Source: a virus. Taken from it: a stretch of 64,000 bases of DNA. The notes under the pieces were generated by a model, which ran no database searches, was not told the origin of the DNA, and saw nothing but the letters and a program-made list of their open reading frames with translations. Within the stretch, counting starts at the first letter, position 1; every line of letters begins with the position of its first letter. Positions 43,627-53,082 of this stretch are shown here, in pieces. The stretch is from the UHGV virus genome UHGV-0371537; one strand, given 5' to 3'. A program made the translations under genes and the position numbers.

Positions 43627-44372
43627 TGGCATCTCTCCAGGCTCTCAGAAAGCTGAACGACTTCGAAAATCGTCACTACACATTCCAGCAGTATGAACTC
43701 CCATACAAAGAACTGGAGTGTGTGACGACGGAGAATGGTCGACATTATGTGTCTCCGACTGGCGTCAAACTCACGTCTGTCACAACGATGCTGGGTCGAA
43801 CCGGAGACCATGAATGGCTCGAAGCCTGGAGGGAGAAGTTGGGCGCAGAGGCCGCCGATCTTGAGACCATGCGTTGTGCGGAACGTGGGGAGAAGCTGCA
43901 TCTTGCGTGTGAATTGTATTTGAAGAACCGCCCAATGAAAGAAGTGCTCGAGGCGGCTGGTGAATACATGTTCATGTTCAAGCAACTCTTCCCATACCTG
44001 AACAAGATGACCAAGATCTATGCTCAGGAGATTCCATTATATAGCGAAGTCCTTGGCCTCGCTGGGCGCGTAGACCTCATCGGGGTGTATGAGGGCAAAC
44101 CAGCCATAATCGACTTCAAGACCTCCAATGTAATGAAGACTCGGGGTATGATTGAGGACTACAGCATCCAGCTGTGTCTATACTCAGTCATGTTCCAACA
44201 GATGTTCGGCGTGAAGATCACCCGGTTGATAAACGTCATCGCCAACGAATCCTCTTTGAACCCAACTATCATCGAGTTCCATCGTGATGACATCCTGAGC
44301 AAGATGTTTGAGCGTGTCCGCCTGTACCATCGCATGGATAAAGAACAGAACGGAGTCTGGGCGAACCACTAA
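43623..44372 (+). CDS. PD-(D/E)xK nuclease-like protein (249 aa)
   Basis: GRVDLIGVYEGKPAIIDFKTS fits a D...(D/E).K core; sits between UvsY-like and UvsW-like genes. Confidence 0.45.
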   Translation: MMASLQALRKLNDFENRHYTFQQYELPYKELECVTTENGRHYVSPTGVKLTSVTTMLGRTGDHEWLEAWREKLGAEAADLETMRCAERGEKLHLACELYLKNRPMKEVLEAAGEYMFMFKQLFPYLNKMTKIYAQEIPLYSEVLGLAGRVDLIGVYEGKPAIIDFKTSNVMKTRGMIEDYSIQLCLYSVMFQQMFGVKITRLINVIANESSLNPTIIEFHRDDILSKMFERVRLYHRMDKEQNGVWANH

Positions 44373-44375
44373 ATA
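44369..44375 (+). promoter_or_regulatory. late-promoter-like CTAAATA motif upstream of the UvsW-like gene
   Basis: CTAAATACCCCAT inside the 3-prime end of the upstream gene, 26 nt before ATG 44401. Confidence 0.4.
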
Positions 44376-44400
44376 CCCCATATATCTTGGGAGATTTTGT

Positions 44401-45909
44401 ATGGCAGACGTTCAGATTGTTAAGGTTAACGAAGTCCGCATGCGTTGCATCGCAGATCTTTCTATCAGGGAAGAGCTGAACGATTACTTCAAATTCGAAG
44501 ACCCCAATTACACACCAAATCCATTCTCGAAATGGGATGGAATCGTTCGCCTTTTCACCAAGTCGTCCGGCCTCATCGATATCGGTCTCCTGTTCGAGGT
44601 TTTTAAATTCTGTAAGCATCACGGATACACAGTTGAATTGGACCCGGCGCTGAAGTACATACAGGACATCCCTGATGAAGAGATCTATGAATTCATCAAC
44701 AGCCTACACGCCAAAGTACGTACAGAAAATCATGAGTACATCGATGCGATCACCCGTGATTACCAGTTCGACACGATAGCCAAGGCGATGCGTCAAACCA
44801 GATGCGTCTGCGAACTGGCTACGAGTGCCGGGAAGTCCTTTGTTCTGTATGTCATGGCGCGGTACTACAGGCAACGCAGAGAAGCCCTAGAAAGCAATCT
44901 GAGGACGCTTATCGTGGTGCCGTCAATCCACCTGGTTACACAGCTGTACGACAACTTCGAAGAATACTCCCACGGCACTGACTGGAAGCCAGTTGTCCAC
45001 ACTCAGCTGATCTTTGAGGGGGCAACCAAGAACATCACCAAGCCGATTGTCATCAGTACCTGGCAGGGCATACAAGACCAACCGAAGGAGTGGTTCCACC
45101 AGTTTGGCGACATCGTTGTGGATGAAGTACATACATCCAAGTCCGAGAAGCTGTCCTACATCCTCAACAATTGTATCTACGCCGACCAGCGTCTGGGCGT
45201 GACGGGTACGCTGGCAAACACCAAAGTCGCTGGGCTTCAGGTGGTGGCTCACTTCGGCACTTATCACAAGATCATCACGGCTCGCGACCTTATCAATCTT
45301 GGGTACGCCACTGACATCAAGGTCAAGATGATCGAGCTGAAGCACACCATCGCTGACGCAATGACTCTTGACGGGGAGTACAGCAAGGAAATTGAATATC
45401 TTATCACCCATCAGTCGCGAAACGAAGTGATTGCGAAGATGGCGCTGAACCTCAAGGGGAATGTTGCTGTTATGTTCGAGCGTATTGACGCCCACATGAT
45501 GGTAGTGTATGAGATGCTGAGCGCAGTAAAGCCAAACGTGTTTGTCATCAACGGTGAAGTGAAGATCGAAGATCGTCGACGCATTCAGAAAGCGATGGAA
45601 GATGGCGAGGATATCACGTTGCTGGCTTCTTACGGGACAATGCAGCAGGGTGTTTCAATCAAGAAGTTGCATCACCTGGTACTGGCCCACCCGAGCAAGT
45701 CATATATCCGTGTCATACAGACATTGGGTCGTCTGATGCGTCAGCACTCCTCTAAGGATGTGGCATGGATCTGGGACTTAGTCGACAATGCGTCGTATAA
45801 AGGATCCCAGAACCACGCTGTGAGGCATTCGCAAGAGCGATACAAGTTCTATCTGTCTGAGCGCCACCCAGTAGAATTCATGAAAGTGGCGCTCGGTAAT
45901 CACGATTGA
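44401..45909 (+). CDS. uvsW: DNA/RNA helicase, T4 UvsW-like
   Basis: Walker A LATSAGKS, DEVH box, TWQGIQDQPKEWFHQFG and KKLHHLVLAH resemble T4 UvsW; 502 aa from ATG 44401 (track start 44308). Confidence 0.85.
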   Translation: MADVQIVKVNEVRMRCIADLSIREELNDYFKFEDPNYTPNPFSKWDGIVRLFTKSSGLIDIGLLFEVFKFCKHHGYTVELDPALKYIQDIPDEEIYEFINSLHAKVRTENHEYIDAITRDYQFDTIAKAMRQTRCVCELATSAGKSFVLYVMARYYRQRREALESNLRTLIVVPSIHLVTQLYDNFEEYSHGTDWKPVVHTQLIFEGATKNITKPIVISTWQGIQDQPKEWFHQFGDIVVDEVHTSKSEKLSYILNNCIYADQRLGVTGTLANTKVAGLQVVAHFGTYHKIITARDLINLGYATDIKVKMIELKHTIADAMTLDGEYSKEIEYLITHQSRNEVIAKMALNLKGNVAVMFERIDAHMMVVYEMLSAVKPNVFVINGEVKIEDRRRIQKAMEDGEDITLLASYGTMQQGVSIKKLHHLVLAHPSKSYIRVIQTLGRLMRQHSSKDVAWIWDLVDNASYKGSQNHAVRHSQERYKFYLSERHPVEFMKVALGNHD

Positions 45910-46277
45910 TCTTGGTTCACATAGGCGGGGGTTGCCTCGCCTTCTTCACCCGCTGCGCCGAACAATTTGTCCAAAGAAGCCAGGCACTGAGAATTCAGAT
46001 GTTCACTAATCGTGTCTTTCAACGTTCGTTCGCTGTCTAATTTGAACGGCAACACCTTCGCTTCAATGCCGTTTTCAAAGGTGACAACGCCGATGTACAG
46101 ACCAACTTTCATGCCTGTCATCAAGCCAAGAGGCACAAAGCGCGGCTCCGATGGTAAGTTCTTGTCTGACGCCAGCTGTGCCAGATAAACTGGAGTTCCG
46201 GTAACAAACTCTCCTGCGGTGAGGATGGCATCTGGCTTGCTGCATCCCACTGCGTACAATCCTACAAACTGTTTCAT
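45900..46277 (-). CDS. hypothetical protein (125 aa)
   Basis: Minus-strand ORF divergent from the sliding clamp gene. Confidence 0.45.
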   Translation of the reverse strand: MKQFVGLYAVGCSKPDAILTAGEFVTGTPVYLAQLASDKNLPSEPRFVPLGLMTGMKVGLYIGVVTFENGIEAKVLPFKLDSERTLKDTISEHLNSQCLASLDKLFGAAGEEGEATPAYVNQDQS

Positions 46278-46404
46278 ATATTACTCTCGTGTGTTGGTTA
46301 ACCTGACATACATATTATTTCGCGCCCATGTTTAGACCAAATTAAATTATTTTGCTGTTGAATAAAAACTGCTTTCTTGTTGAACAACTGGCGTGGTATT
46401 ATAC

Positions 46405-46459
46405 GAGTTGTGAGTGTTAACGAGCAACGAGTATTTGTTTTATGAGCGAAGCGAATAGG
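46405..46459 (+). repeat. bipartite conserved intergenic element, copy B (upstream of sliding clamp gene)
   Basis: GAGTTGTGAGTGTTAACGAGCAACGA (46405-46430) and GAGCGAAGCGAATAGG (46444-46459); spacer 13 nt here versus 51 nt in copy A. Confidence 0.55.
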
Positions 46460-46620
46460 ATTAATAAAGGTTGTTATCTTTAATAAATTCCATAAATGCC
46501 GAAGGCATTTATTAATAACGCGTAGCGGCAAATCACCACTTGTTCTATAAGCACAACACAGCGATACTAGATTGCGTCAAACATGACTTGAACCCCACTA
46601 TATTTTGAGGATACATACAA

Positions 46621-47289
46621 ATGCAAGAGATCACTCTCTCCGAACGTACACTTCAGTTGCTGGCCAACTTTGAGACCATCAACCCTTCTATCGTTCTGAC
46701 ACCGGGTAAAATGCTGCGCAGCATCAACGATTCTTCTACTGTGATTGCCGTGGCGCAGATCGAAGAAGACTTCCCGTTTGAGTTCCCTATCCTGGACCTG
46801 ACAAAGCTCCTGGCCATCCAGCGCCTGCCTTCCTTCAAAGGCGGTAAAGCCGAATTCCATCAGGACTACATCCTGCTGAAAGGTGAAAGCTCTCAGTTGC
46901 AGTTCTGGCGCTCTGCGAAGGAACTCACTGTTGTCCCGGCTGACACCATCGAACTGCCGTCTGTCGACTTCGAAGCGATCATCACTCCAGAAAAGATGAA
47001 AGAACTGACCCGCGCCTGTTCTACCCTCGGCCACAAGACCGTGCGCCTGGTTGCTCAGGGTGGCAAAACTCGCTTGGTTGCAACTACCACTACCCTGGAC
47101 AACTCTAACAACTACACCGTTGAGCTGGGTGAAACTGCTCTGCCGGACTTCGTCATGCCGCTGGACGTTGCCAACCTGAAGATGATCGAAGGCAACTATA
47201 CTCTGCGCGCCTGTGCAGAACTGCAGATGGTCAACTTCCAGTCCTCCGACGCGACGATCAATTACTTCGTCGGCGCACAGATTGAGTAA
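46621..47289 (+). CDS. gp45: sliding clamp, T4 gp45-like
   Basis: N-terminal LQLLANFETINPSIVL resembles T4 gp45; precedes the clamp loader. Confidence 0.8.
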   Translation: MQEITLSERTLQLLANFETINPSIVLTPGKMLRSINDSSTVIAVAQIEEDFPFEFPILDLTKLLAIQRLPSFKGGKAEFHQDYILLKGESSQLQFWRSAKELTVVPADTIELPSVDFEAIITPEKMKELTRACSTLGHKTVRLVAQGGKTRLVATTTTLDNSNNYTVELGETALPDFVMPLDVANLKMIEGNYTLRACAELQMVNFQSSDATINYFVGAQIE

Positions 47290-47368
47290 TCAATCTCCAG
47301 CCTGATGCTATAATGTGTGGGCGGGGGTTTCCCGCCCATTTGAAATGATTCTTCTACAAGAGGCTGAA

Positions 47369-48025
47369 ATGAGGAATCAACCGTTTGTATATCATTTGTT
47401 AGGAAAGGATGGTTCTTTCTATTTTGGTTCTAGAACGAAATTGGGTGCGCATCCTTTACAATTGTTCACTTCGTATTTCACTTCTTCACAAACGGTCAAG
47501 GAAATCATATCTAAGAAAGGTTCTGATTTCTTTGATGTGATATTTGTAGAATTGTTCGACTCTCCAGAAGATGCATATTGGAGAGAGCAGCAGTTGATTA
47601 GTGAGAACATTGATCACCCAAAATGTTTAAACAAATCATTTCAACCACTGGGTTGTGGTATCGCCAACGGTAGGTCAGCGGGACCCAAACATCACCGAGT
47701 TGGTGTCTCGAGTTGGTTGAAGGGTAAGTCTGGGAATCTTCATCCCATGCACGGAAGAACTGGTAAAAGCCACCCCGCCGCAGGAATAAAACCCTGGGAC
47801 ACCGGGGCTGCGCTGCTACACAACACCAGACCGATGTGGTTAAAGGCTGGGGTAGTGTATGATCACTGGGTTTCTACTGGTGATGGGTGCCATAGAATTG
47901 CCCGTTTGTTCTCTATCAAAGAGAACACCGCAACGAGTATGTTAAACAAATTCAAAGAGGGCTGGAACCCGTATGATGACGACGCTTGGGTTCTGTTCTG
48001 TAAACTATATCATGGAAATACATAA
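47369..48025 (+). CDS. GIY-YIG homing endonuclease (Seg-like)
   Basis: FVYHLLGKDGSFYFGSRT is a GIY-YIG core; NUMOD-like HPMHGRTGKSHP; ATG 47369 with GAGG SD; inserted between clamp and clamp-loader genes. Confidence 0.7.
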   Translation: MRNQPFVYHLLGKDGSFYFGSRTKLGAHPLQLFTSYFTSSQTVKEIISKKGSDFFDVIFVELFDSPEDAYWREQQLISENIDHPKCLNKSFQPLGCGIANGRSAGPKHHRVGVSSWLKGKSGNLHPMHGRTGKSHPAAGIKPWDTGAALLHNTRPMWLKAGVVYDHWVSTGDGCHRIARLFSIKENTATSMLNKFKEGWNPYDDDAWVLFCKLYHGNT

Positions 48026-49014
48026 TGTCTAATATCACGATTGTAAAAGACCAGTACGCTTGGGAGAACCGTTTCCGCCCTGACAACCTTGATGAGATTA
48101 TCATCCCTCAAGACGTCCGTGCTAAAATCCATGGCTACATTACCAGTGGCAACGGTAACATTCCTTCCATGCTGTTTTACTCCCCTCAGCCTGGTACTGG
48201 TAAAACCACCTCTGCCCTGGCTGTGTGCAACGAGATCGGTTGTAAACAACCCCTGATGATCAACGCATCCCTGGACAACAGCATTGATGTTATCCGTGAT
48301 CGCGTGATTCAATACTCTACTGGCGTGAGTGTATTCGGCGGTCGCAAAGTCGTTATCCTCGACGAAGTGGAGCGCCTGTCTATGGCGGCGCAAGAATCCC
48401 TGAAGGGTATTGTAGAGAAGGTCTCCAAGAACTGCTCGTTCATCCTGACCACCAACGCCAAGCAACGCGTGAACGAACCTTTGCGATCTCGTTGCCGTGA
48501 AATCGACTTCATCTGGAACGAGCAGGAAGCACTGGAAGTTCAGAACAAGTTCTGTTTGCGTTGCGTTGAAATCCTCCGCGCCGAAGGTGTTGAGTTCGTT
48601 CCCCAGGTTCTGGCTGCTATCGTTAAGCGCCATTTCCCCGATAATCGCCGCATTATGGGCACCCTGCAGGATAACGTCACCACCTATGGCAAGATTGACG
48701 AACGCGCCCTGGCTGTCTTGAAAGCGGCTGACCTTGGTACTCTGGTCGGCATGCTGAAAGCCAATGACTGGGCTGGTATGAAGCAGTGGGTGACTGACAA
48801 CCAGAACTACATCACAGAAGACTTCTATTCTCGCTTCTTCCAGTTCTGTGTACCGCAAGACAAAGAGAAGCCGATGATGGTTCAGAACGAGTCCATCCCA
48901 GACCTGGTCTGCGTCTGCGGCCAGTCACAAATCGAACATCGTCAGGTGGGTGATGTGTGGCTTCACGCCGTTTATTTCCTGACCAACGTCATGCTCAACA
49001 TTAAGTGGAAGTGA
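48025..49014 (+). CDS. gp44: clamp loader large subunit, T4 gp44-like
   Basis: Walker A SPQPGTGKTT, VVILDEVE Walker B and SRC motif resemble T4 gp44. Confidence 0.9.
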   Translation: MSNITIVKDQYAWENRFRPDNLDEIIIPQDVRAKIHGYITSGNGNIPSMLFYSPQPGTGKTTSALAVCNEIGCKQPLMINASLDNSIDVIRDRVIQYSTGVSVFGGRKVVILDEVERLSMAAQESLKGIVEKVSKNCSFILTTNAKQRVNEPLRSRCREIDFIWNEQEALEVQNKFCLRCVEILRAEGVEFVPQVLAAIVKRHFPDNRRIMGTLQDNVTTYGKIDERALAVLKAADLGTLVGMLKANDWAGMKQWVTDNQNYITEDFYSRFFQFCVPQDKEKPMMVQNESIPDLVCVCGQSQIEHRQVGDVWLHAVYFLTNVMLNIKWK

Positions 49015-49018
49015 TACT

Positions 49019-49441
49019 ATGGCCGCCCCTGGATTGTTCGATTATCTGTCTGCTCTGAACAGCAGCAAAGAGAACCTTCTGCAAACCGATGATCCGGAAG
49101 TGCAGAAGGGCTTCGACCCGTTCATGACGCGGCGTGGTCTCGCCCAGAGCAAAGACACTCTGGTGTTTGCGCAGCAGATGAATAAGCTGCATGCCACCAC
49201 TCCATGGATGCAATGGTCATACGCCTTTCATTCCATTCCAGCGCGTAAGCGTTATGACAAATGGTCTAAGAAAGGCGCTGTCGACCCTGATGTGAAGATG
49301 CTATCCGAGTATTTCTACATCAGCATGGAGAAGGCATCCGAGTACGTCCGTTTCTTGCCGCAGGAAGTCCTGGCTGAGATACGCGAAAAGATGGGACGTA
49401 CTGAGCTAAACGCCAAAGCGAAACCGCGCAAGGCTAAGTAG
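49019..49441 (+). CDS. clamp loader small subunit, gp62-like (by synteny)
   Basis: Position between gp44-like and regA-like genes; weak similarity only. Confidence 0.5.
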   Translation: MAAPGLFDYLSALNSSKENLLQTDDPEVQKGFDPFMTRRGLAQSKDTLVFAQQMNKLHATTPWMQWSYAFHSIPARKRYDKWSKKGAVDPDVKMLSEYFYISMEKASEYVRFLPQEVLAEIREKMGRTELNAKAKPRKAK

Positions 49442-49471: not shown

Positions 49472-49936
49472 ATGGCGCGTAATACGCTGGACATATTGAA
49501 CATCTCAGCCGTCAACGATGAGGCCAGCATCGTTGATTGTATGGTTGAGGTTCAATTGAACCAAGATCGGCCAGGGATCTTCCTGGGGATCAAGGAAACA
49601 CTGAGCCGAATTGGGGTAAACACGCGCCAAGAGCCGAATACTCTGTACCAGACTTGTCATATCCTTCACAAGTATGGCAAGTATTATATCGTTCACTTCA
49701 AGCATCTGTTTATGCTGGATGGCCATTACAACGGCTTCAACCGTGAGGACATCCTGCGAATGAACCGCATCATCAAACTGCTTGAGCAGTGGAACATGGT
49801 GAAGGTCATTCACCCGGAACAGATCACCGAGGCCGCCGATATGTCACGCATCAAAGTGGTCAAACACGATCAGGTTCCCGAATGGAAACTGGTCCCAAAA
49901 TACATTATCCGGCCTACAAAGGCCAAAAGCGAATAA
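49472..49936 (+). CDS. regA: translational repressor RegA-like
   Basis: ETLSRIGVNTRQEPNTLYQTCHILHKYGKYYIVHFKHLFMLDG and EWKLVPKYII resemble T4 RegA. Confidence 0.8.
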   Translation: MARNTLDILNISAVNDEASIVDCMVEVQLNQDRPGIFLGIKETLSRIGVNTRQEPNTLYQTCHILHKYGKYYIVHFKHLFMLDGHYNGFNREDILRMNRIIKLLEQWNMVKVIHPEQITEAADMSRIKVVKHDQVPEWKLVPKYIIRPTKAKSE

Positions 49937-52152: not shown

Positions 52153-53082
52153 ATGTTTTACGAATTATTGATTTCTAAAGGCGGTAAACCGCATTTTATC
52201 AAGAAGTATTTGAGGATGGTTCAATCTTTCAAATATTCTGATAGTGACTACACTGAATTACACCACATCCTTCCCAAGAGCATGTTCCCTGAATATTCTA
52301 AAGATAAGATAAATTTGGTTCGATTAACAGGCAGACAACATTATCTTGTCCATGTATGCTTGGCCTTGGCTTTCCCAAACACGAGAATGGTGTATGCTGT
52401 TGTAGCTATGAGAAAGGGAGGAAGAAGAAATAAATCAGGTATTCGGTTTAATTCTCATTTGTATGAAAGTTTCAGAATTAAATTCAGCGAACAACTATCT
52501 TTACAATGGAAAGGGGTTTCTCGGTTTGTGGGTAAAGACAACCCAATGTATGGGAGAAGAGGAAAGAATAATCCCCAATATGGGTATAAGAGAACTCCAG
52601 AGCAAGTCAAGAAAATTACCAAAGGATTGATGAAAATCCATGAAAGGATGGCTTCTGATCCGGAATATAAAAGAGAAGTTTTAGAGCAGCGTCGTACCAA
52701 TACGGATTTAAAGCAATTTTCTGAGCGTTCCCGCCAAGCAAAACTCGGTGAACTCAATCCTAATTATGGGAAGGACTTAACCAACTCTTTCACACCGGAA
52801 CAACGCGCCAAACAGAAAGAAAACGCTCAGAAAGGCATGTTGGCTAAGATGCCTTGGGAGAAGGGTAAATGGAACCCCGACAATGACGTATATTGGGAGA
52901 AAGCTGATCAATTCCTTGAAGCCCTGAATACGATGAAACGTTCAGAAGCCCTCTTGTTCGTGTATGGAACAAAAGATCTGAAGGCGTTTAATGCCACCAG
53001 TGGGATAATCGAACGTTTCAATAAAGGCTGGGAACCATTAAAATGCGTAAAATGGTTAAAAAGATATAAGGGTGAAAAATGA
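52153..53082 (+). CDS. HNH homing endonuclease
   Basis: ELHHILPKSMFPEYSKDKINLVRLTGRQHYLVH is an HNH core; repeated NP.YG(R/K) NUMOD-like motifs. Confidence 0.7.
   Translation: MFYELLISKGGKPHFIKKYLRMVQSFKYSDSDYTELHHILPKSMFPEYSKDKINLVRLTGRQHYLVHVCLALAFPNTRMVYAVVAMRKGGRRNKSGIRFNSHLYESFRIKFSEQLSLQWKGVSRFVGKDNPMYGRRGKNNPQYGYKRTPEQVKKITKGLMKIHERMASDPEYKREVLEQRRTNTDLKQFSERSRQAKLGELNPNYGKDLTNSFTPEQRAKQKENAQKGMLAKMPWEKGKWNPDNDVYWEKADQFLEALNTMKRSEALLFVYGTKDLKAFNATSGIIERFNKGWEPLKCVKWLKRYKGEK

Follow-up and report, generated by a model that had tools for sequence, protein, structure and literature searches.

The window analysed in this study is a stretch of 64,000 nucleotides of DNA from the UHGV virus genome UHGV-0371537. 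Between its genes for a gp45-like sliding clamp and a gp44-like clamp-loader ATPase lies an intact open reading frame (ORF) of 657 bp (47369..48025, + strand), which runs from an ATG start to a TAA stop and encodes, in 218 codons, a protein of 218 amino acids (aa). An earlier note, made from the letters alone, took this ORF for a GIY-YIG homing endonuclease gene of the Seg type, inserted between two replication genes that are adjacent in T4. As judged from sequence comparison and a predicted structure, it is quite probable that the gene encodes an active or recently active freestanding GIY-YIG homing endonuclease. The features of the locus are collected in Table 1.

Table 1. Features of the gp45-gp44 locus in the window (positions are those of the whole stretch; HTH, helix-turn-helix; nt, nucleotides)
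Feature	Position	Strand	Basis or remarks
gp45-like sliding clamp gene, upstream flank	46621..47289	+	PHROG 223, 1.8e-64; weak Pfam gp45-slide_C match
Spacer between gp45 and the insert	47290..47368	+	TATAAT 47309-47314; GC hairpin 47317-47339, then TTTGAAA; AAGAGG 47358-47363
Predicted homing endonuclease gene, the whole mobile insert	47369..48025	+	PHROG 314, 8.6e-15; insert boundaries; dN/dS
GIY-YIG (SegE-type) nuclease domain, residues 1-95	47369..47653	+	key residues Y8, Y18, G20, R22, Y36, E73, N88
Linker of low model confidence, residues 96-155	47654..47833	+	Gly/His/Pro-rich; degenerate NUMOD3-like G..HP..G repeats
C-terminal four-helix domain, residues 156-218, putative HTH DNA-binding module	47834..48022	+	AlphaFold2, Foldseek
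Insert 3′ end, now the gp44 translation-initiation region	47975..48024	+	equivalent segment survives as the LIMEstone1 stub
gp44-like clamp-loader ATPase gene, downstream flank, presumed target gene	48025..49014	+	PHROG 168, 2.5e-104; Pfam AAA and Gp44_lid
Insert-linked gp44 patch	48060..48075	+	substitutions at gene nt 36, 42, 46-48, 50-51; WENKYRP to WENRFRP
gp62	49019-49441		follows gp44
regA	49472-49936		follows gp62

The ATG of the ORF is used in every annotated relative; an alternative GTG start at 47315 would give a 236-aa reading. The ribosome-binding site is AAGAGG, 6 nt 5′ of this ATG. At the other end, the TAA (48023-48025) shares one base with the ATG of gp44 (48025-48027) in the sequence TAATG. 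The gp44-like protein matches the T4 gp44 structure 3u5z at 7.9e-40. The GC content is 0.37-0.41 over the first half of the endonuclease ORF as opposed to 0.50-0.55 in the flanks, and it is 36% in the part encoding the nuclease domain. At third codon positions it is 35% in the nuclease domain, 50% in the rest of the ORF, and 63-67% in four neighbouring genes.

The window region matches Ackermannviridae (ViI-like) phages, with its best backbone matches in Aglimvirinae. Limestonevirus is ~87% identical over 12 kb, and the Agtrevirus phage pSal-SNUABM-02 is 92.6% identical over the 2.5-kb locus. Because of these matches, I take the window phage to be an unsequenced or new species of Aglimvirinae.

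The insertion site and its distribution

The gp45-gp44 junction was compared across 12 genomes. The two genes are adjacent in the insert-free Aglimvirinae phages SKML-39, ChubbyThor, and phiD3, the Kuttervirus phage Marshall, and the Taipeivirus phage May, as well as in 17 IMG/VR loci. The insert-free order is the gp45 stop codon, a spacer of 79-86 nt containing TATAAT, a GC hairpin, TTTGAAA, and AAGAGGCTGNA, and then ATG TCT AAT of gp44. The empty junction reads ...AAGAGGCTGNAATG-TCTAAT and the filled junction reads ...AAGAGGCTGNAATG-AGGAAT...CATAATG-TCTAAT. Apart from a 3-bp ATG ambiguity at its boundaries, the insert is exactly the 657-bp ORF. Thus, the comparison proposed in the earlier note gave a clean empty junction, and its claim of an insertion between otherwise adjacent genes holds.

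The ATG of the endonuclease gene is the former ATG of gp44, and the insert has neither a promoter nor a ribosome-binding site of its own. Since the insertion lies exactly at the gp44 start codon, the endonuclease would be translated from the original Shine-Dalgarno sequence and ATG of gp44. The window spacer is 96-99% identical to the spacer preceding gp44 in the insert-free SKML-39, ChubbyThor, and phiD3, and the spacer of the carrier phage allotria is of the Kuttervirus type (71.4% identical to that of the window). These alignments indicate that the gp45-side spacer belongs to the backbone of each lineage and lies outside the mobile insert. Because a spacer, a ribosome-binding site, and an ATG of the lineage's own precede AGG AAT..., the mobile segment is the bare 657-bp ORF. 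An ORF-only insert fits the promoter-less cassette class of several T4 seg and mob genes (PMC2988022), taken one step further. The only ribosome-binding-like element ahead of the present gp44 ATG is a weak GGA at -11 to -9.

The GC-rich hairpin and the TTTGAAA between gp45 and the next gene are retained in all three clades. Equivalents of the window hairpin (47317-47339, + strand) lie in loci L003, L004, L013-L015, L021, L022, and L032, and the stems differ by lineage (GGGCGGGG/CCCGCCC, GGCGGGG/CCCCGCC, and GCAGGGGC/GCCCCTGC). The centroid fold contains the hairpin, and in phage May it carries a terminator annotation. When the gp45-gp44 spacer was folded across lineages with RNAalifold, the hairpin was recovered, but mis-registration of the lineages left one compensatory pair only, and covariation is not claimed. 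A scan for sigma-70 and terminator consensus sequences gave nothing above shuffled sequences on the + strand.

Is the insert common at this junction? A sensitive BLAST search found it in 16 of the ~295 phage records matching the locus. The same 16 records were returned by tblastn, with 82-99% aa identity and always at the gp45-gp44 locus, and every other tblastn match had at most 41% aa identity and was located elsewhere. After merging of GenBank/RefSeq duplicates, the 16 carrier records correspond to 14 distinct phages. They are Agtrevirus-like phages of Salmonella, E. coli, and Yersinia and Kuttervirus phages of Salmonella. Pattern scans of IMG/VR mostly re-found sequenced isolates and added one carrier, L031 (3300045988_142553). 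Insert-bearing and insert-free states are both present within Agtrevirus and within Kuttervirus. With 16 of 295 records carrying it, the gene is not the invariable resident of this junction that, according to the earlier note, would speak against homing.

The identity of the insert does not follow that of its flanks. For gp45, the nucleotide identity to the window is 91.6-94.0% in Aglimvirinae relatives and ~76% in Kuttervirus. In allotria, the insert is 94.2% identical to that of the window, as opposed to 76.2% for gp45, 71.4% for the spacer, 76.9% for gp44, 71.4% for gp62, and 79.1% for regA. The values for rabagast are similar (insert 90.1%; gp45 76.2%, spacer 71.4%, gp44 76.4%, gp62 71.6%, regA 79.4%). 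The opposite is seen in CAU_YEP3, whose insert is 79.1% identical and whose flanks are closer (gp45 91.6%, spacer 98.7%, gp44 87.1%, gp62 96.0%, regA 94.4%). Thus, the history of the insert is decoupled from that of the backbone in both directions, indicating that the element has moved between Aglimvirinae and Cvivirinae backbones, across phage genera.

The gene exists in diverged alleles, here called A (the window type) and B (CAU_YEP3). The CAU_YEP3 endonuclease gene is 98-100% identical to that of the window over nt 1-180 and 55-78% identical over nt 240-540, which encode the linker and the DNA-binding part. The linker is the most divergent stretch between the two alleles. The insert of L031 is identical to that of CAU_YEP3 (L010 2268-2924). 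The endonucleases of rabagast (L011) and S115 are hybrids with a window-like 5′ part and a CAU_YEP3-like 3′ end. Mosaics of this sort suggest that the alleles have recombined, and their specificity may thereby have changed. Among 8 endonuclease alleles, the ratio of nonsynonymous to synonymous substitution rates (dN/dS) is 0.05-0.21, and the protein is therefore under purifying selection.

It was also found that the element has been lost. The spacer of the Dickeya phage LIMEstone1 is 104 nt rather than 79 nt long, and those of Coodle and RC-2014 are likewise 104 nt, judged by 1870-bp match lengths. In LIMEstone1, the spacer reads ...TTTGAAATGA, then CAGTGCTTGGGTTCTATTCTGTAAACTATATCATGGGAATTCATA-ATG, with the junction at the microhomology AATGA; this stub, CAGTGCTTGGGTTCTATTCTGTAAACTATATCATGGGAATTCATA-ATG, follows directly after the spacer sequence ...CCCATTTGAAATGA. 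In the stub (L001 2246-2294), the final 45-50 nt of the endonuclease gene are preserved in their allele-B form. The spacer contains the 5-nt AATGA (in GAAATGA), and the ORF contains it near its end (in ATAATGA). Thus, a 632-bp deletion removed the gene and kept the piece serving as the gp44 initiation region. A clean empty site is found in sister Limestonevirus isolates (phiD3 and others). The comparison indicates that the element has been lost by deletion at least once, in the LIMEstone1 lineage, leaving a stub and the RFRP allele of gp44 described below. LIMEstone1 would then represent the resistant empty-site stage of a homing cycle.

The stub was also considered as an ancestral spacer; this was rejected, as its sequence codes for the family's conserved C-terminus and the empty form AAGAGGCTGNAATG-TCTAA is common to three clades. 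The depositors of LIMEstone1 annotated a "putative middle promoter" inside the stub, which is a prediction of theirs only.

Could the gene be kept for the sake of gp44? A domesticated or "addictive" cassette would contain an immobile nuclease, retained because it had captured the ribosome-binding site and start codon of gp44, whose translation would be coupled to it. The exactly ORF-sized insertion with its TAATG overlap would suit such a cassette, as would the weak GGA 9-11 nt ahead of the gp44 ATG and the LIMEstone1 deletion, which still kept the last ~50 nt. However, purifying selection extends over the whole protein, catalytic residues included, a near-identical gene in ~76%-identical backbones implies recent mobility, and most relatives do without the gene, which has been lost by deletion. 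I therefore regard domestication as improbable and mobility by homing as the better account of the locus.

Domains of the 218-residue protein

The GIY-YIG core recognised in the earlier note, FVYHLLGKDGSFYFGSRT, corresponds to residues 6-23 of the ORF. The ORF is confirmed and its GIY-YIG assignment is supported, although the protein scores below the Pfam thresholds (see the next section). The protein matches PHROG 314, "homing endonuclease", over its full length at 8.6e-15. A word-indexed homologue search gave 2 proteins, and the alignment was therefore built from an exhaustive HMMER search, which yielded 656 cluster-representative homologues at E<=1e-3. Most of these cover residues 4-93, and a separate set covers residues ~128-212 only. 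A chance ORF is ruled out by the full-length PHROG 314 match, the 656 homologues, and the dN/dS values. Among 41 close homologues, 24 match PF19835 (SegE_GIY-YIG) at E<=1e-3, the best at 1e-9. An NCBIfam search with the 218-aa protein gave no match, and a PDB sequence search with this single protein gave nothing relevant.

In the 41-sequence alignment, Y36, E73, and N88 are invariant, and Y8, Y18, G20, S39, and S40 are nearly so (Y8, Y18, and G20 in >=90% of the sequences). An AlphaFold2 model built from this alignment has a mean predicted local distance difference test score (pLDDT) of 75. Residues 1-95 are modelled as beta-beta-alpha-beta-alpha with a pLDDT of ~90, and the GIY and YIG motifs, FVY (6-8) and FYFG (17-20), lie on model strands 6-12 and 17-22. 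The top three PDB matches of the nuclease domain in Foldseek are to the I-TevI catalytic domain (1mk0/1ln0), with probabilities of 0.99-1.00 and target-normalised template modelling scores of 0.63-0.68. A viral structure library gave 125 matches at E<=1e-3, whose names are those of GIY-YIG, Seg-like, or group-I-intron endonucleases. When the family profile was aligned to the sequence of I-TevI by hhalign (E=4e-5), the paired residues were Y8/Y6, Y18/Y17, G20/G19, E73/E75, and N88/N90 (218-aa protein/I-TevI). Together, sequence and model support the assignment of the protein as a GIY-YIG nuclease of the SegE type with predicted activity.

The earlier note also claimed NUMOD-like DNA-binding repeats. 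A repeated G-x-x-(x)-HP-x-x-G motif does occur at residues ~121-139 (GNLHPMHG, GKSHPAAG), and these repeats align with NUMOD3-bearing stretches of homologues, 21 of the 41 family members matching Pfam NUMOD3. In the protein itself, however, the isolated C-terminal half (residues 95-218) matched neither NUMOD3 (PF07460) nor any other NUMOD in Pfam at E<=10. In the PDB, the family profile reached only 1i3j, the DNA-binding domain of I-TevI, and that marginally (E=0.041). The repeats thus stand, and their likeness to NUMOD is at best a degenerate resemblance.

Beyond the linker, the AlphaFold2 model has four helices (160-170, 174-180, 185-196, and 205-215; pLDDT 84-93). Foldseek gave weak matches of this C-terminal domain to HTH domains of the LuxR/GerE/sigma-region-4 type (LiaR, NarL, TraR, and sigma region 4), with E values of ~1-2.5 and probabilities of 0.2-0.66, and Pfam gave no match for it. 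In other proteins, the same module stands behind HNH, SegE-type, and NUMOD3-containing N-termini. It is also weakly recognisable in a second endonuclease of the window (52153-53082). Such sharing of a module appears to be the domain shuffling typical of homing endonucleases.

The second endonuclease gene is freestanding (52153-53082, + strand) and encodes a protein of 309 aa with an HNH-like N-terminus (ELHHILPKS...RQHYLVH) and a Pfam NUMOD3 match at 6.4e-5. It has in common with the 218-aa protein a GxxNPMxGR repeat and a C-terminal F.KGW.P motif. Its distribution is sporadic, with full coverage in 34/143 records, and it is 92-95% identical to the Kuttervirus copies (Det7, GG32, and PMBT18), far above the backbone identity.

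A nuclease need not be a homing enzyme. T4 endonuclease II belongs to the GIY-YIG superfamily, and the gene at the gp45-gp44 junction might likewise encode a non-homing enzyme that benefits the phage by degrading host or competitor DNA, having been inherited vertically and lost many times. Besides the superfamily membership, the location within an operon of replication genes would agree with such a role. However, vertical descent cannot yield 94% insert identity within 71-79% flanks, and dozens of precise ATG-to-ATG losses would be needed across three clades. The modular build and the closest relatives in structure and sequence, which are Seg-type or intron-type endonucleases, also speak for homing. 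A vertically inherited, non-homing nuclease is thus very improbable.

Substitutions in gp44 linked to the insert

An alignment of gp44 nt 1-96 was made for 36 loci. In it, window-type gp44 carries a patch of 7 substitutions at nt 36-51, which cause K16R and Y17F and two silent changes. The 22 insert-free loci, from three clades, encode WENKYRP in codons 13-19, and nt 36-56 read (A/G)TGGGAAAACAA(A/G)TA(T/C)CG.CC. The window-type allele encodes WENRFRP, with nt 36-56 reading (C/T)TGGGAGAACCGTTTCCGCCC, and is present in 11 loci: the window, pSal-SNUABM-02, YX22, SP-9-14, allotria, rabagast, KE31, S115, Mansal, SilasIsHot, and UTK0004. LIMEstone1, which has only the stub, also encodes WENRFRP (ATGGGAAAACCGCTTCCGCCC). 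The 2 allele-B loci (CAU_YEP3 and L031) encode WENKYRP and differ from SKML-39 by 8 synonymous changes within nt 1-54. Over both backbones, the patch is present in 12 of 12 genomes counted with the window-type allele, namely 5 of Aglimvirinae, the window among them, and 7 of Kuttervirus, and in none of the 22 insert-free loci. A megablast search with a 41-nt patch query found 6 Aglimvirinae carriers, and the RF-type sequence was also found in SW16-7, PC3, and PH4; since the 28-mer word excludes the Kuttervirus carriers, this search is not a census. A second small patch (nt 15-24, ACGATTGTAAAA vs ACTATCGTTTCC, S8K) is present in Aglimvirinae carriers and LIMEstone1 but not in Kuttervirus carriers.

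The linkage is clearest in a pair of sister phages. Allotria and the insert-free maane (L028) match at all 1106 nt compared on the upstream side of the insertion point. Downstream, they have 13 mismatches in 1564 nt, and 7/13 are at gp44 nt 36, 42, 46, 47, 48, 50, and 51; going from maane to allotria, these are G36C, A42G, AAA46-48CGT, and AT50-51TC. Thus, the two phages differ locally by the 657-bp ORF and a 16-nt patch. The KYRP motif changed by the patch is conserved in T4 gp44 (EQKYRP) and in yeast RFC3 (VEKYRP), which fits the habit of homing endonucleases to target conserved coding sequence, as reviewed elsewhere (PMC2988022).

These observations lead to a possible homing mechanism. In a mixed infection, the protein would bind the 5′ end of an insert-free gp44 through its linker and C-terminal helical domain. 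The binding site would lie around gp44 nt 36-56, TGGGAAAACAA(A/G)TA(T/C)CG.CC, which encodes the clamp-loader motif WENKYRP, and the GIY-YIG domain would make a double-strand break nearby. Recombinational repair from an insert-bearing genome would then copy the insert and an adjacent patch. The gp44 patch, or the silent recoding in allele B, would protect the carrier genome from being cut again. That the endonuclease targets the KYRP (RFC box) DNA, 36-56 bp into gp44, and that escape is provided by RFRP in allele A or by synonymous recoding in allele B, is a tentative proposal to which I give somewhat less than even chances.

Several points weigh against homing from this site by this enzyme. 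The Pfam matches of the 218-aa protein miss the gathering thresholds (PF01541, 15.2-17.7 bits vs 22.6; PF19835, 15.2-17.8 vs 25), with E-values of 0.004-0.027. The canonical arginine, R27 on helix 1 of I-TevI, falls in an alignment gap and has no counterpart, although R22 of the family-wide G-S-R motif is a candidate that may stand in for it. The linker (residues ~96-155) is poorly modelled by AlphaFold2 (pLDDT 40-55). As to the target, T4 Seg enzymes as a rule cleave at a distance of hundreds of bp from the gene that encodes them (PMC2988022), and the gp44 patch is only 36-51 bp from the insertion point. The stretch of gp44 that separates insert and patch (nt 1-35) is of the backbone type in the Kuttervirus carriers. 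One simple, unbroken co-conversion tract from an Aglimvirinae donor therefore does not account for the patch, whose source in Kuttervirus may be another Kuttervirus donor or patchy heteroduplex repair. Given the phylogenetic non-independence of the loci, the 12-versus-22 association perhaps amounts to 2-4 independent events. The position of the target site is drawn from linkage only, and whether the patch marks it is a close call, even at best.

The patch may instead be a hitch-hiking neutral polymorphism or a compensation for altered expression of gp44, with the cleavage site elsewhere, hundreds of bp away as for SegG. This would agree with the distant cutting by freestanding T4 enzymes (PMC2988022), with the allele-B genomes that lack the RF change, and with the greater overall mosaicism of gp44 (85-92%) than of gp45 (92-94%) among Aglimvirinae. 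However, the patch is the sole clustered difference between near-identical sisters from ~1.1 kb upstream to 1.5 kb downstream and recurs in two backbones, and a change within a motif that is universally conserved elsewhere is difficult to regard as neutral. A target elsewhere is thus rather unlikely, and the KYRP site is the candidate retained here.

Some further observations concern the neighbouring genes. Among Aglimvirinae, gp44 is more divergent and mosaic than gp45 (84.8-91.8% vs 91.6-94.0% identity to the window), and blocks of single-nucleotide polymorphisms within it (48025-49014) recur in varying combinations across genomes. Recurrent recombination downstream of the insertion site would account for this pattern. 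Upstream of gp45 lies an AT-rich spacer (46300-46600, GC 0.33-0.40). A terminator-like hairpin on the minus strand, ATAAATGCC-TTC-GGCATTTAT (46492-46512), is located at the meeting point of gp45 and a divergent 125-aa ORF on the minus strand (45900-46277). A UvsW-like helicase ORF of 533 aa (44308-45909, + strand) is seemingly uninterrupted in the window. The uvsW gene of LIMEstone1 (L001 1-810) is split by I-LimI, another presence/absence polymorphism of a mobile element adjoining the locus.

Known endonucleases and a proposed homing cycle in Ackermannviridae

The arrangement resembles that of the Seg enzymes of T4 (SegA-G, of which SegF and SegG perform intronless homing): a freestanding GIY-YIG gene lies sporadically between conserved essential genes. 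Like several of the seg and mob genes, it is a promoter-less cassette riding on the operon of its host, and the linked differences in the neighbouring gene recall marker exclusion and co-conversion in T4 (PMC2988022). The SegG structure matches the 218-aa model at 3.9e-7, and close homologues match PF19835. On the other hand, T4 has no seg gene at the 45/44 position (Table 1 of PMC2988022), and the present gene belongs to Ackermannviridae and to another locus. Its insert also comes without a ribosome-binding site and uses the ATG that belonged to the displaced gene. Its presumed target is 36-56 bp from the insertion and not hundreds of bp away. The Seg-type homing arrangement named in the earlier note is thus well supported by the sporadic presence, the discordance of insert and backbone, the gp44 patch, and the remnant in LIMEstone1.

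I-TevI, from the T4 td intron, is the best match of the nuclease domain among solved structures and has the aligned Y/Y/G/E/N constellation. It has the same tripartite build of a nuclease, a flexible linker, and a C-terminal helical DNA-binding domain, and a short distance between insertion and presumed cut. The marginal profile match (1i3j, E=0.041) reaches its NUMOD3 helix region. Unlike I-TevI, the window gene is not in an intron, and its product has only ~17% sequence identity, no zinc finger, no aligned R27, and a degenerate NUMOD3.

The closest paralogues are F-LimVI of LIMEstone1 and its Kuttervirus orthologues (PhiSH19 and Maynard), with 35-41% aa identity over the full length. They have the same domain order and the C-terminal motif KF+.GW.P..D..W, and they are also freestanding with a stop/start overlap onto a downstream essential gene; they differ in being located between rnh and gp55. 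The F-Lim endonucleases have been listed as putative homing endonucleases, and none of the 14 endonuclease elements listed for LIMEstone1 is at the gp45-gp44 junction (PMC3296691). A literature search found no paper that describes the gp45-gp44 locus. The kind of element is ordinary, since freestanding homing endonucleases of T4-like phages are well known and Ackermannviridae have already been noted as rich in endonuclease genes of variable presence (PMC3296691; PMC6267328).

What the locus offers is the series of states. Insert-free, insert-bearing, mosaic-allele, and deleted-stub genomes occur in near-isogenic pairs and make up a clean natural experiment, which predicts a precise target of 16-20 bp within an essential conserved motif. 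Most GenBank records among the 16 carriers label the gene as "hypothetical protein" and a few as "homing endonuclease"; it can now be named with confidence. In ViI-like phages, hypermodified bases take the place of part of the thymidine, and a GIY-YIG enzyme as small as 218 aa that has a defined site on such DNA could be of use in engineering these phages. The element also helps to explain the mosaicism around the clamp-loader genes that is met when Ackermannviridae of Salmonella and E. coli are compared or combined in phage cocktails. If the proposed homing at the KYRP site is true, the locus, where the ribosome-binding site and start codon of gp44 have also been captured, would show in nature and across genera how a selfish nuclease reshapes both the sequence and the expression of an essential replication protein, with the stages of gain, spread, resistance, and loss all preserved in sequenced isolates.

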